The position numbers and the translations under genes were made by a program. Below the pieces are notes generated by a model. It ran no database searches, was not told the DNA's origin, and saw only the letters and a program-made list of their open reading frames with translations. Positions 3,066-41,930 of a DNA stretch of 64,000 bases are shown piece by piece. Origin of the DNA: Amoebidium appalachense (taxonomy: Eukaryota > Protista > Ichthyosporea); contig CAVNZM010000009.1 in assembly GCA_963693365.1 (NCBI GenBank), forward strand, positions 8,971,408-9,035,407, in the 5' to 3' direction. The stretch's first letter is position 1, and every line of letters begins with the position of its first letter.

Positions 3066-4002
3066 ACAACCCCCCGTCCCCCCAGGGGCACTGCGGAAAG
3101 TATATGCCCGTAGATACTATCGCCACCAAGCCAAATGACGCCAGATTCTTCCTCCCTCCCCCCCCCCCAAAAAAAAAAATTACTATAATAAAAATAAAAA
3201 TAAGAATAAAAAGAGAAGAAAAGAGCACAGACACACAAACACCACATTGCCGTGCCCCGCACTTTTACAAAAATATACACCAACACACACACACACACAC
3301 ACACCCGCGTGAATCAAGGGCGGGTATGTCTGGTTAATGTTTTGCACTCCACAGTTAGGGTGCCTGAAATGATAGCATACAAAGTTGACTTTGACAAATT
3401 CTATACTAGTTGTACAGTACAGTAGACAACTAGGTAACTTTTATTGATGTGCCTTTTAATCTTCTATTAAAATTTATGACTTACGTGGGCATTCCCGTCA
3501 TTTACACTATACCAACATTACGTTCATACACATAATATCATAATTCGTGGATGATACATTTTCTAAAAAGCTAAATTTTAAGACACGTTATACGGTGCGT
3601 CACAGTCACTACTCAATCGCTATTAATAGTAAAACCTATGCACACTGTGCACCTCTAAGTTAACACCCCTGAAACTGTGGCATACTGTATTAGTATAGCT
3701 CATATTCAGACTCTGGCTAGAACTCTAAGGCAGTTACTGATGGATATATCTAAACAGCCCACATTCTACCCATGCCACTATTCTCCAAATTCTACAATGA
3801 ACATCTACACAACAGGGTCCGGTAAAATAGTTATAGCTAAAGCACAAAGCGCCCCGGCTTACTGAGAATGAAAAAAAAAAAGAGGCCTAATATATTGACC
3901 TGGAGGAGCAAACCAGTGCACAAGAAAAAACCAGACAAACAAAACAACGGCTTTAAAAAAAAAAAAAAAACGGAGAGGAAAAGTCTGTGTCATGGAATTA
4001 AA

Positions 4003-5366
4003 CTACACGCAAAAAGTCCATGCACAATTTGGATAAGGAGGGGGTGGTAGCATCCCCACATCAAGCCCCCCTGGGTATGCGGACACACCAACCACAGTGC
4101 GTTCAAATACACAAATATGAAGTGGTTTCTCAAGTTGATATGAGCAACATCGGGCAGAGGTGCCCTCTTACATTCCTCAACAATAAACGGGGACCCAACA
4201 TGTTCGTAGAAAAACGGAGCAGGGAGGCTAACCACCAAGTCGTTCTTGTTCACAGCGCGCAGCGTCTTGGGCAAAAGTCCTAAAACCTGCTCATAGTAAT
4301 TTTTAAACCCCCCATTTCCTACTTTTGGTGAAGCGAACGCAAACACTCCCCTCACATCCCACCCCAATTTGCTAAACCTTGCACCAGCTAGAATTGTGAC
4401 AGCAGCACCCAAACTATGACCGGTTATGAAGATGGGGCAGTTCATAGGGGTGCGGCCCATTGATAAGCATGCTTTAGCCACACCCACCTCCAGACCCTTT
4501 TCAGCCAGGTCAATGTACACGAGGTTGTATCCGGCGTGCACCAAAGCAGAAGGACCACCTCCATAAATTTGGTCGGCTGGCTTGAGAGATATACCCATTA
4601 AATTGGGCGTGATATCCTTCATATCCTGCGAGCCTTGGATAGTAACTATCACCATATTTTCTGTACGTAGAACCGCAGCCTGGCTCTGAAGACTTGTCAC
4701 AAAGAACTGAGTATCGCGGACGCCCATACATGACTACCAGTTTTTCTGGTTGTCATTCAGAACATAGGCCTGAAACGCGATAAGGCCCATTAAATACACG
4801 TTGTTATTGCTGTTTATCCCCGCCTTCACATTCAAAACATCGGGCTGGTTGAGGACTTCTTTGAACGCGTATTTGTCACATTGAGGGAACGCTTGAAAGA
4901 AAAATGGTCCTTCTTTAGGGTCGGATGGGAGCGGCAGTTGAACGTTATTTGCTACAGGAACCTTGGAGTAATATTGAGACGTCCAATCAGTCACATCTTG
5001 TGCTCGCGGAGGAGCCCGTGTAGGGGGAGGGGCGCATGGACACGCACCGTCACATCTCTTCACTTCTCCCGCTCTCAACTTGAGACAGTCTAGATTTCTA
5101 TACTCTCTGTTCTCTGTGCTGCATACGTGTGCTTCGGGGCCTTGGTTACAGTTGTTCACTGAACTTTTAGAGGGCAAACCTACGTTGAACACGCTGCTTG
5201 CTGTTTTTTGAGCAAAATCGACCACCTGACCTATGGGGGATGGTTTGAAAAAGTTTATGACTCTGTCTAGGAAACCCCAGCGCTTTTCACGGTGTTTGGC
5301 TTCGACAGCTAGGGTAAAGAAAGCCAACGTGAAAAGCAGGAACAAACGAAAATGTCGAGCCCCCAT
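4003..5366 (-). CDS. secreted class-3 lipase with N-terminal Kazal-like module (copy A); in-frame TAG at 4734-4736; conserved C-terminus in the -1 frame after G6 at 4066-4071
   Basis: Signal peptide, REKR|W dibasic site, VCSTENREYRNLDC...CDGACPC, VHAGY, ITGHSLGAA, FASPKVGN, NKNDLV, NH. ORFs 4734-5366 and 3990-4727 are in the same frame and colinear with the paralog at 7046. Confidence 0.85.
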
Positions 5367-5725
5367 GATGCATATGCATGGAATCAGCTAATTTGTAGTA
5401 AGCTTAAGTGTTGTTTGGGTTATAGATGCCATGTACTACGTGAGGGAACCAGCTCGCTAGAAACATTACGTTCAATTACTAGTTTCTCTGTTTCAGACTA
5501 TCACCATGCTTTGTATGTTGACACAGAACTACTTTGACTGAGCAGTGAGCACATGCTCACTGACACCCCCGGGGGAGGCCTGAAGTAGGGCTGATCCGTG
5601 GGGACTCTTTTTAAACATTGGAATGTATAGACAACCAATCATCTGCTCCGAGCTTATCAGAACTAGATAGTATCATAGTTCGCATCTCCGAATCAATGGA
5701 AGCCCCGACACAAAACGCTGGATAA

Positions 5726-6131
5726 TGAGTCCCTTCGCGTGGATCTAAATATCTAAATACTCGGCGAATTTAAAGAACGAATGTCGTTCTCTAAAACGAA
5801 TGTCGTTCTCTAAATGTCGTTCTCTAAATATCTAAAAGTCTGCTCGATTCGTGTAGAGTAGTTTAGAAACTAAATTATCTAGATAGTTAATCGCGATTCT
5901 ATTGGATAAGAGATAGTTAGGCGAGTTCCAAGAACCAATCGTCTCATCCCAGACATCTAGAAGACCCCCCCCACCCCCTCTTCCAGATGCGCCCATCTGG
6001 AAGAAGGTCGAAATCAATCTAGATTTTATGCAATTTTTAAACATTTAACAGATTGATTGGATTGCAACAATTTTATACGCAAATTTAACAATCTAGATAT
6101 TTAGATATCTAGATTCACGCGAAGCGGCTCA
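5726..6131. mobile_element. MITE-like element with ~35-bp imperfect terminal inverted repeats
   Basis: Left end TGAGTCCCTTCGCGTGGATCTAAATATCTAAATA vs reverse complement of right end TGAGCCGCTTCGCGTGAATCTAGATATCTAAATA. Internal AATGTCGTTCTCTA x3. No coding capacity and no clear TSD. Confidence 0.65.
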
Positions 6132-6388
6132 ATATTCGTAGAGGGTAAAAACGTAAACACTTGTCTAGCACTGTGTTTATAACTGGAAAATATTTATTAT
6201 ATGATACGTACTACATACATAAATCCCTCCCAAATTCTGTTCGAGCTTCCAAGTTTTCGAGAACTACCACCCTTTATCCATCGCAGGTGGAATGTAAACA
6301 ATGCACGTGCCAACACCGTTAAAAAGCGTTCATTTTGATTCGCTAAAGCCGCACCACGCAAAAAAAACGCGTCAACTTACATCATACG

Positions 6389-6454
6389 CTAACACGTACT
6401 GACGTGTTGCCGCACGTGCGACGTTTAGTGCATAGGCCGGCACATAGGCATTTT

Positions 6455-6489
<35 letters not shown>

Positions 6490-6986
6490 AGACACCGCCC
6501 CAGTAGGTGGTAGCATCATACGGCACCGTGATGTGGTGTGCTCAGTCGACGTCAGCGTGTAGCCCCGTGGGAGGCTCCTTTGGAGTGCGGCACTTGGCCC
6601 GTGTATGTATGCCTATGTGCCGGCCTATGCACTAAACCCGTCCACACTCCAAGTTATCAATGATGCATATATATATATGGCCACACTAGCCACATTATGA
6701 TATGCGGATATGATATTGCTGTGTTCTCACACCTAACATCGTAGGTACACAGTGTACATGATGTACGTAATATCGTTGTGCTCGAAAATAGTTATGAAAG
6801 CGTGCGAGGTTTAGGGGACATTTTATTGAAGTGAAAATTTTCATTAATACAGTAACTGCCTACCACCTACTGAGGCGGTGTCTCCTTTCTTTTTATTTTT
6901 TTTTATTTTTATTTTTTTATTTACTTAAAAGCCGCCTGAGTAGATGTTAAACGTCGCACGTGCGGCAACACGTCAGTACGTGTTAG
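6389..6986. mobile_element. non-autonomous foldback/MITE-like element with ~125-bp TIRs and a nested inverted repeat
   Basis: CTAACACGTACTGACGTGTTGCCGCACGTGCGACGTTTA...A-run...GGAGACACCGCC.CAGTAGGTGGTAG (6389-6513) is mirrored at 6858-6986. 6424-6451 is mirrored again at 6609-6636. Confidence 0.75.
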
Positions 6987-7045
6987 AGTAACTGCTGTAC
7001 TTACCATAACCGTACGTACAGTAGTACAGCTTTGAACTTAAAAAA

Positions 7046-8604
7046 ATGGGGCCTTTTCGGCGCCTCTATGTGCTCCTTCTGTGCATTCTAGCCTTTTCTA
7101 CGATAGGTGTCGATGCCAAAAACAGAGAAAAGCGATGGGGTAACTTCTTTTCAAGAATTGTCAATGCCGTGAAAGAAAGTAGCGTGGTGACAACTGTTAG
7201 CAACACAGTGCAACAGGCAAAGGCATCGATCACAAACACCGACACGTACAAATCAGCAGCAAACATAGTGAACTCCGTTGCTGAAAGCATACAGCAAAAA
7301 AGCACACAAAAGCCAACTTTTTCAGCGGCAGATGTTGGAAATGCCGCACAAAATCTCCTACAAGAGATAAAAACAGTGGTCGGGACGGCAGCTCAAACCG
7401 TATCGGAGAAAGTACAAAACTCGGCCGTTTACCAACTGGGAGAAGCAACTGCTCGATGTGTTTCCTCACCGGAGCTGCGTGTGTGCAGCACAGACAATCG
7501 CGAATTCAAGAACATTTACTGCCTCAAGATAAAGTTGGGTGAGGTGAAAAGATGTGATGGTGCATGCCCGTGCGTTCCCCCTGTGACCAGGTCTCTTCCC
7601 AGGCAGAAGTTTACGACTGATTGGACATTGCTTTATTACAGCAAGGTCCCTACCTCTAACACAATTACGGACGTGACACCCCCAGAACCAGCAGAGGGCC
7701 CATTCTATTACGCGCCATTCCCCCAGTGTGAAAAATACGTATTTAAAGACATTTTTAACCGAGCGGACGTGTTTGATGTGAACGCAGGCATCGGCAGCAA
7801 CAACAACGTATATTTAATGGCGCTGATTGCCTTCCAGACCTACTCCTTCACACAGAACATGAAGGTTTGGTGGACGTGTTTGGGTGTCCGCAACATCGAC
7901 ACGATTGAGACTCCCGGGGCTAACCAGGCTGTTGTCCTGCGTACGGACTTAGCGGTCATTGTTTCTTTTCAGGGGACAAAGGATTCGGAAGACAACACAT
8001 CGAACTTTGACGGCATACAACCCCGCGCAAACCAAGCAAACTACGGCGGGGGCCCGGATGCTAAAGTACACAACGGGTATGACGATGCATTTATGGACCT
8101 GCAGAACAACGGCAAAATAGAATGGAAAGTACTGTCCGCATGTGCGCAGTTGAACAAAAGTCCGCAAACTTGCCCAATAATCATTACTGCACACAGTCGC
8201 GGGTCTGCGTTGGGTACCTTAGCGGCCGCTAGATTTACACTTCTGGGGTGGTCGGTGAAAGGTGTGTTTTTGTTTGCTTCTCCGAAAGTTGCAAGCCCCA
8301 CATTTAGACGTTATTATGAGGATACACTAAAACTGAAGGACAAAACCTTACGTGCGGTGAACAAGAACGATTTGGTCGTTGGGCTTCCTCCGGCCTATTA
8401 CGAACATGTGGGGAATACAATGATTGTGGAGGAATGTAGACGTGCACCGTTGCCCGATGTTTCCTACTATAACTTGCGACATCACTATGCGTGGGTGTAT
8501 CTAAACGCACTGTGGTTGGTTTGTCCTTTTGCAGAGGGGGGCTTGACATAGGTATGCTGCCGCCCCCGCCTTATCCAAATTGTGCCTGGTCCTTCTGCGT
8601 GTAG
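7046..8604 (+). CDS. secreted class-3 lipase with Kazal-like module (copy B); 0-frame ORF stops at 8551, conserved -1-frame tail ends at 8604
   Basis: 501-aa ORF with signal peptide, REKR|W, VCSTDNREFKNIYC...CDGACPC, VHNGY, ITAHSRGS (GxSxG variant), FASPKV, NKNDLV, HH. Confidence 0.9.
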
Positions 8605-9003
8605 CGGTTCTTCGAGTAGTGATTGGATAAGTATCATCCGGACTCTAATCAATTAGCACATAGGACTAAGCCGACATTTTTCTATATGTGCAGGTGGTGA
8701 TTAATATCAGCATATTTTGAATTTGAGATAAATAGCGCTTTTTCTTTCTTTCTTTTTTTTTTCCCCACAAATCATAGACCCTACCAACCCTGGAATTTTT
8801 AGAAAACCGGGGGTGGGTGGGTGTGGGGGGGACGGGGGGAGGGGGAGGGGGGAGGTTGGGCACCACGATGATACGAACAAGGTGACATGCTGCGCGATTG
8901 AACTTCACGAATGCAGCATGCAATGCTTAGCTTTCCCACCTTAACGCAATTATACGTCTACGTGTGATGCCACGCTTGGCTCCTCAGAGGTTTCTCCTGC
9001 CAA

Positions 9004-12486: not shown

Positions 12487-14710
12487 ATGTGTCAAGTCAC
12501 CAGCACACCCGCCCCTCTTAGGGAGCTTGCAGCGCGGCTTGCACCCCACCTACCCCCCGACAATCTTCTTTCGGAGCCGCAAGCCCCCTCAACGCTTTCT
12601 CCTGCGGGCGAAAAGCTCTGGCTTCTCTACGCGCTTGCCTACGAGGTGCATATGAACGCGAGCCCCATCTCTGCGTCCATGATTGGTGATTATCGCTACA
12701 ATGACCAAATTGGGGATCGCTCACGTGAGGGGTTTGACAAGGTCAACCGTTGCTACCAGAACATTCTTGAAGAGGCTGAGAAGATTGACGAGAAAGATCT
12801 GAGCGAGGAGGTGGAGAACTTGCTGTTCTTGAAGGAACTGTGCAAGTCTGAGGTTCTCAAGTGAGTGCGCAAGATCTTCCGATTCCTTATTCTTTTTTTT
12901 TCTTCTTTTCTTTATAAAGGCTTTTGCAGGCTTTCCTGCCTTCGGCTGTTGAATTCTTGCCTGAATTTGAGGTAACTAGGGTAAGGGCTAGCAAGATTTG
13001 GGAGGGCGGGGATCCAGGTTTGATGTGTAGTAATACAATGGAGAGTCTGGAAAGGGGGAGGAGGGGGGGAGGGGGGGGGGGTTGGCGGGATAGGTTCCAA
13101 TAACAAGAAGTAAACAGGATTCTCTAGTGATAGCATGGAGGCAGACCCCTTTCATAATAATGCATTTGAGACCCCATCCATTACCTCTTTCTTGCTTCTT
13201 CCCTCATACATCCCCCCCCGGCCCCCTCCCCCCCTCTATTCCCTACCTGCAGCTCCATTCGTCATAATACACACTTTAACACACACTAATCACGCACATA
13301 CCCATCTAACAGGCACGAAGATTGGCAGTACGCCATCCCTCTGACGCACATGTTCGGTGCCTTCAACACGTTCATGGGCCTGTCCAACTTCAGCCCTATA
13401 CGCGATGCTAAAGATGCGGCTGACTACCTGAAGCGCATTAGGCAGTTTCCCCTACTGGCAGATCAAATCATCGAGGCGTTCAAGTTTGGGATCAAGCAAA
13501 AGACCACCCTCCCCGCTTTTTCCATCGAAGCCATCATCTCCCAGTTCCAAGCACAAGTTGACACCCCACCAGAAAACATCATTATGTACAAGGGGAAGGA
13601 GGCAAAGATGAGAGAGGTGGGTGCCGATGCCGAGGCAGATGGGGTTCTCATCTCCCTCCGGGATGAGTTCATTCCCTCTTGCAAGAAAATTGTCGAGTTT
13701 TTGCGGGCTGAATACCTGCCTGTGGCCCGCGAGTCGGACGGGTTGTGGTCTTGGCCCGACTTTGAGCGTATCTACAAGGGTACACTCCAGTTCTGGACCT
13801 CTACCGATCTGACGGCTGAAGAGGTTCATCGTCTTGGTAGAGTCATCCCTCCCTCCTTTCCTGCACCTCCCCGCCCCCCCCCCCCCCCCCCCCCCCCAAC
13901 CACCCCCAGACACCATCCCCCCCGCACCCCCCCTCCCTTACCCCTGCTTCCTCCCTCCGCCCCCCAAAAGTAGAAAACTGTCATCCCCCTCGCTCCCTCC
14001 CTACCCCCCCCCCCCCCCTCCCCCACGCCCTCTCCCCCCCACCACACACACCACCACCAAACAGCAATCCCCCCCCCCCCCCCCCCCCCCCCCTTACCCC
14101 CCCACCCCCCACCCCTCCCCCCCCCCCAAAAAAAGGGAAAAGATAGCCATCTCCTCTCCCTCTCTTACCCCCCCCCCCCCCTCCTCCCACCCCAATCCGG
14201 CCCCATCGTATCGTCCTCCTCGCCTCACAGCATTCCCCCAATCCTCCCCCCCCCCCTTACCCCCCCACCCCCCACCCCCCCCCCCCCCCCAAAAAAAAGG
14301 GAAAAGATAGCCATCTCCTCTCCCTCTCCCCCCCTCCTCCCCCCCCCCCCCCCCCCCCCCCCTCCTCCCACCCCAATCCGGCCCCATCGTATCGTCCTCC
14401 TCGCCTCACAGCATTCCCCCCCCCCCCACCCCCCTCCCCCTCCCCCCCCCCCCCCCCCCCTGAAAAAGGAACAATGGCATCATGCGCAAAATGCGTCCTT
14501 CTTTGCTTTCATTACCCCCCCCCCCCCCCCAAAAAAAAAAAAAACAAAAAAACAAAAAAAAAACGCGCCGTTGCCCATTTCCAACACCCCCGACCCATCT
14601 ACCCACATTATTGCCCTCCATTTCCCCTCCTGCCTCCCGGGTGCACGGGGACCACCTACCACCTACCGAGCGATCAATTGCCTTAATTGTTTTCCTGGAT
14701 GCTGGATCCA

Positions 14711-14742
<32 letters not shown>

Positions 14743-14935
14743 ACTCACACACGTCCCACCCCACCCCTTCCCCCGGCATAAAGTTCCACCTTGCCCCTCC
14801 CCCCTCCCCCCTCCCCCGCCACTTCCCTGCCCGGTTCCCGGGAAGAGGTGTGCATTCCTCTTTTGATCTTCAGATCGACTTAAGGTTCTTGTTTTGTGTA
14901 TTTGCGTTTGATGGGCACTAACAAAGTCCCCCCCC

Positions 14936-14966
<31 letters not shown>

Positions 14967-14985
14967 ACAGATGCACACACACACA

Positions 14986-15051
<66 letters not shown>

Positions 15052-15302
15052 TCCCCCCCCACATACACAACATAGACAACATACACACGCAGCATACGCA
15101 CACACCATACCGTGGTAGACATTACCAAGCACGCACCAACACACAATAAGACACACACACGCACACACACACAACACACACACACGCACACACACACACA
15201 CACACACCCATCACCCCCTCCCATCCCCAGCCCCCCCACCCCACCCATCACCCCCCGCCGCCCCCCTCCCCACCCACACCTACCCCGCCCCACCCACACC
15301 CA

Positions 15303-15333
<31 letters not shown>

Positions 15334-16340
15334 ACACACACACACACACACACACAGGTTTGGAGCAAGTGGAGCGTATCAGTGCTGAGATCGAAAAGAT
15401 GAAAAACAAACTTGGCTACAACGACCTCTCCCTCAAAGCCTTTATTGATGTTGTGCGTCACGATGAACGGTTTGTTCCCACCAGTGGCGAGCACATTCTG
15501 GAAGAGTACAGAAAGTGCATCGAGAAGGCTAAAGAGGCTGCACCTGGCCTGTTCAACAAGATGCCAAAGGCTGAGTGCGAGGTGACTTTACCAACCCTTT
15601 CTACACCCCCCCCCCCCCCCCCCCCTCTCTCGCTCCCTCCCTCTCTCCCCACCTCCTCTCTCCCATTTCATTGATTGTGTGATTGGGTTGAAACTTGGTA
15701 CTGTGGATGACTCCCCCCCTCCCCCCGCCGCCACCGCCTTGAGGATGGGCTCTGCTTGGGACCCGTGTCGTTTGTGTGATATACACTCAGTTCCTGTGCG
15801 GTCCATCATGAATGTGCACTTTGTATACTCTAAACCCCCCCCCCCCCCCTCCCCTTCACCCCCAACACACACACTTAACACTTTCATTTCCCGACAGGTG
15901 CGAGCCATCGAAGAGTACCGCCACGCCAGCGCCCCGCCCGCTCACTACTACCCGCCCCCCACGGACAACTCCCGTCCCGCCATTTTTTACGCAAACACAT
16001 ACAAACCCGAAACCCGCCCCCTTTTCACTACGGAGAGCATTGGTCTTCACGAGGCAATCCCTGGTCATCATTTCCAACTTGCCCTTGCACAAGAACTTAC
16101 CGGGCTTCCACGGTTAAGAACACTCTCTGCCCATTTCACCATGGGCTACTGCGAGGGGTGGGGGCTCTACACGGAAAAGCTCGGTGGGTGTTCTTATCCT
16201 TGGATACACCCTACTCATTTCCATTCCTCCCCCCTCCCCCCCTCCCCCTCTGTGCACACATCCCTCCACTCCGTATCAAACACACAGGTGCCCGTACATA
16301 AGGCCACACAAGGCATACTTCTGTTCCTCTCTTCCCCCGT

Positions 16341-16371
<31 letters not shown>

Positions 16372-16727
16372 TCCCCCCACCCCCTCTCTTCCGTGTGTCC
16401 CAGGAAAAGACGTTGCCCCTTCTCCCCCCCCCCCCCCCCCCCCCCCCACAAGAAAAAAAAAAAAAAAAACAAACAAAAAAAACATGCCCCATACCTCTCT
16501 CCATCCCTCCTTCCCCTCTCCCCCTCCCCCCTCCCCTCCCCCCCCCCCCCCCCCCCCCCAACACACACACACACCTCCCTCGCCGACACGTTTAGGATTT
16601 CCGTACCCTCCTAATCCACCCCAAGAAACGTCAAATGTGAGATAGCTTATGACCCCCTCCCCCCCCCCCCCCCCCCCCTCCCTCCCTCCCTTCCCCTCCC
16701 GCAACACACACACACGCACGGGAGCGC

Positions 16728-19857: not shown

Positions 19858-19936
19858 CAACCCAACGCAGTGCTCTTCCCCAACTGCATAGAAACAAAAC
19901 AACAACAAAGCAACCACCATTCTTCTACCCAACAAA

Positions 19937-21022
19937 ATGATCTACATGCAGCTTTTATTAGCCGCCTATTTGGCTGGAATCACACTTGGCGCTGTGGTTG
20001 AACCGACCCGCACAGACCAACTTGCCGAAGGGAACCCCACCGACCAGGTCGACTCAACAGACACCGTTGCGGAGGCTGACGATGGTTTTGCCTTTGGCGA
20101 AAAATGGCAGGCACTGAACGTGTTTGGCGGCCAGTTCAAGTCCGTGGCGCGCACGGCTGAGCTGCAAGAACGCACGCTTTTTACGGGTGTATTCAAGGAG
20201 TTAGACCCCAACCGTCCGTTCAACAGTGATAGGGCAGGAGACGACAGGCGTGAGGTCGACCTTCCCTACGAGGAGTTGCTCATGCGCGCTGCATTTGACT
20301 CCGTTGAGGCCCCGAAAGAACCCGGCGTCCCCTCCGTGGTGCAGCGCACTGTGCTCGACCCAGACAGCAGCGAGGCTAAGATGGCACTCTATGAAATGCT
20401 TAAACGAATGGCCGAAATGGAAACCCTGCACTCCTACGGCGCCGTGCCCAAAGACTCAAAGGAGCCTGCAACGAATCCCACCGTGCAACAGCGTGTAAGA
20501 CGGTTTATTTTTGGTGCTGACGACCGCACACATGTCGCAAACAGCAAAAACTTCCCCTACCGCACTGTGGGCATGGTCGGCAACCACTGCACGGGCACAT
20601 TGAAGTTGTTCCTTAATGCCCTTATCACTCTCGAAGAGTCTCCGAGCGTCGGGTGGATGTCGTTTGGCTGGCACACAGGCATCAGCTCTGGGTGGAACTT
20701 TAACATTAACGGATACCCTGGGGACAAGCCGTGGGGGCAAATGTTTAACCACTTTGGGGCACTGATTGACGCAAAGAGCAAGCAGCTGCGCCACCGCATG
20801 GACACAGTACCAGGCACAAGCGGGTCGGGCATGTACGTTAAGTTTGACAGCGGGTTAAGGCGCATATATGGTGTCAGCAATGTGGAGGCTTCGAAGGTTG
20901 TTATTGAGTGGCCGTGGTTCTGGAACTGGCACTGGGAGAAAGACTACAATGCGGGTGTGCGTGTGACAGAGAGTCGCTTTGCCCTGATTTGTGGGTGGAT
21001 GAATGAACCGTCTGTGTGCTAA
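19937..21022 (+). CDS. secreted S1 (glutamyl-endopeptidase/V8-like) serine protease precursor lacking the catalytic His and Asp segment
   Basis: Signal peptide, long propeptide, RVRR|FIFGADDR, FPYRTVG, CTGTL, GYPGDK, DTVPGTSGS. No TAAHC or DYAL-type Asp. No introns. Confidence 0.85.
   Translation: MIYMQLLLAAYLAGITLGAVVEPTRTDQLAEGNPTDQVDSTDTVAEADDGFAFGEKWQALNVFGGQFKSVARTAELQERTLFTGVFKELDPNRPFNSDRAGDDRREVDLPYEELLMRAAFDSVEAPKEPGVPSVVQRTVLDPDSSEAKMALYEMLKRMAEMETLHSYGAVPKDSKEPATNPTVQQRVRRFIFGADDRTHVANSKNFPYRTVGMVGNHCTGTLKLFLNALITLEESPSVGWMSFGWHTGISSGWNFNINGYPGDKPWGQMFNHFGALIDAKSKQLRHRMDTVPGTSGSGMYVKFDSGLRRIYGVSNVEASKVVIEWPWFWNWHWEKDYNAGVRVTESRFALICGWMNEPSVC

Positions 21023-29961: not shown

Positions 29962-41930
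<11,969 letters not shown>

Follow-up and report, generated by a model that had tools for sequence, protein, structure and literature searches.

Two class 3 lipase genes of Amoebidium appalachense raise an unusual question of decoding. In the assembled sequence, each of them carries its conserved C-terminal tail in the −1 reading frame, directly behind a run of six G's. A first-pass annotation of this DNA proposed four explanations: programmed −1 frameshifting at G_GGG_GGC, transcriptional insertion of a G, removal of a 14-nt micro-intron, or a systematic consensus error that turned G7 into G6. We asked which of these accounts for the two genes, and examined the runs, the tails and their homologues in turn.

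Two divergent lipase paralogs in the window

The window, by which we mean the whole stretch of 64,000 nucleotides that was analysed, contains two lipase paralogs in divergent orientation and free of introns, named A (+) and B (−) (Table 1). They are identical at 254 of 454 aligned positions. The Pfam domain Lipase_3 (PF01764) matched residues 305-450 of A with 56 bits and the part of B downstream of its premature stop with 60.2 bits, the cut-off being 22. The motif AHSRG in A and GHSLG in B is presumably the Ser-containing elbow. When A and B were aligned with the four homologues described below (P0002-P0005), the Ser, Asp and His columns were conserved; these may be the catalytic triad of an alpha/beta hydrolase fold, as is typical of lipase class 3. 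Paralog A has a hydrophobic, signal-peptide-like N-terminus, which suggests that the lipase product is secreted, and the encoded enzyme is predicted to be an active acylglycerol hydrolase.

The nearest solved relatives are the fungal secreted lipases 1tgl, 3uuf and 1dt3, all of them weak matches (E 3e-5 to 6e-4). Unlike other class 3 lipases, the proteins belong to a small subfamily in which the N-terminal part is longer and partly Cys-rich, and in which the C-terminal tail is rich in Pro. A word-indexed search with paralog A gave no match, and the same kind of search with part of paralog B gave three distant lipases. A protein atlas search returned generic Lipase_3 clusters only, and a search for exact database entries of three window proteins found none.

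Table 1. Features of the lipase locus, in window coordinates.
Feature	Position	Strand	Details
Paralog A, class 3 lipase	7046..8604	+	one unbroken ORF; 519 aa once the G run is seven
Paralog B, same family	4003..5366	−	454 codons with G7; premature stop in this strain
Site A, G run	8536..8541	+	G6 in the window; extra G behind 8535 in X1, X4, X7, X9 and X10 (5/5 covering runs)
Site B, G run	4066..4071	−	six in the window; extra C behind 4065 in X1, X4, X7, X13, X9, X10 and X11 (7/7 covering runs)
Last 20 codons and stop, paralog A	8542..8604	+	9/11 differences to B at third positions; aligns with the tails of P0002-P0005
Last 20 codons and stop, paralog B	4003..4065	−	compared with the A tail; homologue alignment
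Coding G6 in paralog B, internal control	4308..4313	−	no indel in bridging contigs; called correctly
Genomic premature TAG, codon 211 of paralog B	4734..4736	−	strain-specific; run contigs

The C-terminal tails are coding

As written in the window, site A reads G6 on the forward strand and site B reads C6, that is, G6 on the minus strand. In these letters, the frame 0 similarity between A and B stops behind the G6, and the −1 frame carries 20 near-identical codons up to a common TAG. Both runs and both tail translations are present as the first-pass annotation had described them, and its comparison of the two tails was reproduced: 11 of 63 bases differ, nine of them at the third codon position and two at the first (I/V and S/T). 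The third-position bias of these differences is beyond chance (p = 0.0014 for at least 9 of 11 on one named codon position). Upstream of the G6, the coding pattern is that of frame 0, again as claimed, with 15, 7 and 19 differences on positions 1, 2 and 3 over 44 codons, a weaker bias than that of the tail. The similarity indeed ends at the common TAG, past which only 13 of 60 bases are identical.

Both runs contain seven G's in the DNA

To judge the run lengths, we compared the window with 8 of the 24 public sequencing runs listed for the paralog A region. All of these are contigs and not raw reads; such contigs drop rare variants, and the platform is not on record. X1 and X4 are flagged as possible sources of the window DNA, X9 and X10 represent a second strain with many substitutions relative to the window, and X13 and X14 are RNA by guess only, X14 reaching neither gene.

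Every run that covers a site carries one extra base there (Table 1), and at both sites the depth with the extra base is the full depth. Site A lacks coverage in X11, X13 and X14, and site B in X14; the X9 contig at site B has a depth of just 3.7. With X1 and X4 set aside, the extra base is found in 3/3 runs at site A (X7, X9 and X10; studies P2 and P3) and in 5/5 runs at site B (X7, X9, X10, X11 and X13; studies P2, P3 and P4), and the second strain also has G7 at both sites. Over window positions 6960-8760, the X1 and X4 contigs show 0 substitutions and one gap. Both G runs in the DNA are G7, and the window letters are one base short at each.

The first-pass annotation had named genomic G7 at both sites as the finding that would speak against its observation; G7 at each is what the DNA contigs show. 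The discrepancy is a one-base indel within a run, and independent data from this very strain contradict it, as expected of a homopolymer consensus error. With G7 in the DNA, the tail is therefore in frame, as the ordinary end of each ORF, and no recoding is required. The earlier claim that the −1 frame is under selection thus holds in one part: the tail does encode protein and is subject to purifying selection, but with G7 it lies in frame 0.

A true G6 run is called correctly

Single-copy contigs of the same strain extend over 4,851 bases, in which there were 0 substitutions and all three differences were one-base changes in runs. These contigs bridge 10 runs of at least six bases, of which three differ (3871, 4066 and 8536) and seven agree. 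The true G6 within paralog B (4308) is correct in the window, while both true G7 runs are written as six.

In-frame runs elsewhere in the window (C6 at 15955, G6 at 39914 and C7 at 56564) had been cited as weakening the case for an error. The two six-base runs sit within continuous Pfam matches (DUF885 and ZZ, respectively); the C7 was examined in translation. The six-base controls looked normal because a true G6 is called correctly; they fit true six-base runs and say nothing on the calling of seven bases.

The remaining difference lies in an A11 run (3871-3881), whose length is reduced by one base in X11 and by two in X10, and reflects either a run error or real length variation; among the same-strain contigs, it was found in X11 alone.

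Homologues carry the tail in a single ordinary frame

A scan of 1.84 billion protein representatives gave four matches at E<1e-30 (P0002-P0005), two of which are Amoebidium parasiticum proteins (EukProt). In 4/4 homologues, the Pro-rich tail PP-[YF]-P-[NE]-G lies within a single ordinary ORF. When the run was translated as X so that each frame continued past it, A and B aligned to these tails, with no gap against P0002 and P0003 between the last conserved Cys and the tail, and the Cys-to-Leu spacing in these two homologues is exactly that given by G7.

We also aligned the tails with the last 45 residues of the four homologues. The match of the A tail was reached by 0, 47, 0 and 1 of 2000 shuffles, and that of the frame-0 tail of B by 413, 1612, 274 and 1329 of 2000. 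For P0003, the similarity of the tail is weak, with 47 and 41 of 2000 shuffles reaching it.

A probable homopolymer under-call of both G7 runs

Taken together, we regard it as nearly certain (probability about 0.98) that the apparent frameshift is an assembly error, with G7 in both genes and the window one base short. Among the four options raised earlier, the systematic G7-to-G6 consensus error is the correct one, given G7 in 5/5 and 7/7 covering runs. In the proposed course of events, a long-read consensus would have under-called each G7 as G6; we infer the long-read origin because the window spans many C/G runs of 20-70 bases. With seven G's, each frame passes directly into the conserved tail and stops at the common TAG; the tail is the normal C-terminus of a class 3 lipase, probably a secreted one. 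The two paralogous sites share an equal run length and near-identical flanks, and one systematic error may in this way have struck both copies. An under-call can mimic conservation here because the paralogous sites have like run length and context. The word "systematic" refers to 2/2 true G7 runs, two cases that establish no genome-wide rule.

In PMC8011154, frameshifting indels in homopolymers are described as the chief systematic error left uncorrected in nanopore assemblies. The lipase runs resemble the long-read homopolymer errors of that account in every respect compared, namely a one-base change in a run, a shift of frame, and absence from independent data and from homologues. We see no difference in kind from the errors described there; in the present case two paralogs are affected at a homologous position, so that the change seemed conserved.

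Alternative readings of the two runs

Mononucleotide runs are mutable, and G7 tracts might slip to G6 in living cells. The assembled culture could then truly have been G6 in both genes and have made truncated lipases. As contigs drop rare variants, a minor G6 population could escape the comparison. Against this, two independent deletions would have to fix in one culture, and the possible source runs X1 and X4 read G7 at both sites and otherwise match the window across the genes, which leaves a real G6 culture very improbable. It is just as improbable that the G7 tract, kept at equivalent positions of A and B, constitutes a slippage switch, of which the assembly caught a G6 subpopulation; if it did, that subpopulation would make lipases without the Pro-rich tail.

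The tail could also be restored from a genomic G6 by programmed −1 ribosomal frameshifting or by transcriptional G insertion, and the window letters, taken by themselves, speak for it. Programmed −1 frameshifting and polymerase slippage occur at G or A runs and need a genomic frame break. The DNA of the lipase genes is without one, and the likeness to such systems goes no further than a conserved ORF that seems to continue in the −1 frame past a run. Frameshifting at G_GGG_GGC is contradicted by the DNA, in which the tail is not out of frame (G7 in all covering DNA contigs, from two strains), and a transcriptional insertion by the presence of seven in both the DNA contigs and X13, which is RNA by guess and informative for paralog B only. 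The homologues, too, have the tail in frame. A literature search combining Ichthyosporea with programmed ribosomal frameshifting found no paper. Recoding of either type is accordingly even harder to credit, and we consider its likelihood minute.

Least credible of all, to the point of a vanishing likelihood, is a 14-nt GT..AG micro-intron removed just upstream of the run: the letters offer such boundaries at 8523-8536 and 4084-4071, and cutting out the 14 nt joins the frames of the window letters, but with G7 the same removal breaks the frame and costs a Cys present in 4/4 homologues. X13 spans 3956-5543 with 0 substitutions and the extra base as its sole difference, so this contig, RNA by guess, shows no skip at site B, site A being in no RNA-like contig. 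A second-strain change at 4079, inside the putative intron, replaces His with Tyr, where paralog A has Phe. On paralog A, X13 consists of short pieces of low depth that lie elsewhere than at the run and have no bearing on expression.

A strain-specific premature TAG in paralog B

Independently of the G run, paralog B contains an in-frame TAG that the first-pass annotation had not mentioned. It lies upstream of the lipase domain, and paralog A has TGG at the corresponding codon. At this codon of B, no letter other than those of TAG was seen in X1, X4, X7, X13 and X11, and TGG was seen in X9 and X10 of the second strain. X13 (RNA by guess) spans the entire paralog B with the TAG unchanged. Most likely, this TAG makes one copy of a duplicated gene an ordinary null allele, specific to the strain.

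Two other explanations of the internal TAG were considered and rejected. An alternative genetic code is at odds with the TAG that ends both genes and with TGG in the DNA of the second strain; A-to-I editing is at odds with X13, which shows no other letter, and with the same TGG in DNA.

The second strain also differs in the first 36 codons of B (5261-5330, −), where its four listed changes alter the residue in 4/4 cases. One of the residues altered there is the Trp of a KRWG motif that is also present in paralog A.

Repeats and other features of the window

Upstream of paralog A, there are two opposed copies (6380-6513 and 6860-7003) of a very high-depth repeat of ~135-145 bp, which contains an A/T tract in its interior as well as short segments in inverted orientation. 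Both copies are missing in X10; the second is missing in X9, whose contig stops short of the first. From these absences, the copies seem to be recent insertions, of a small element that is non-autonomous. Another dispersed repeat of high depth is located between A and B (5720-6130), and here the window differs from most compared contigs at many bases.

Runs purely of C or of G, 20-74 bases long, are very frequent across the window, as are long CA/GT repeats; both apparently lie in introns and intergenic DNA, and the lengths given for them should not be trusted. Further downstream, a gene in several pieces (13290-16611, +) has a Pfam DUF885 match in a eukaryote-like context; DUF885 is a family described as bacterial. 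At 19892-21022 (+), there is a 376-codon open frame, for which Pfam gave no match and the database search no exact entry.

Implications

The lipase "frameshift" is an artefact and not a real feature, and, as found, it has no biological consequence. A homopolymer error can strike paralogs repeatedly at their homologous site and thereby imitate conservation, and in-frame runs of six bases are not a valid control for an under-called run of seven. For this assembly, frame breaks at G/C runs need to be checked against independent reads.
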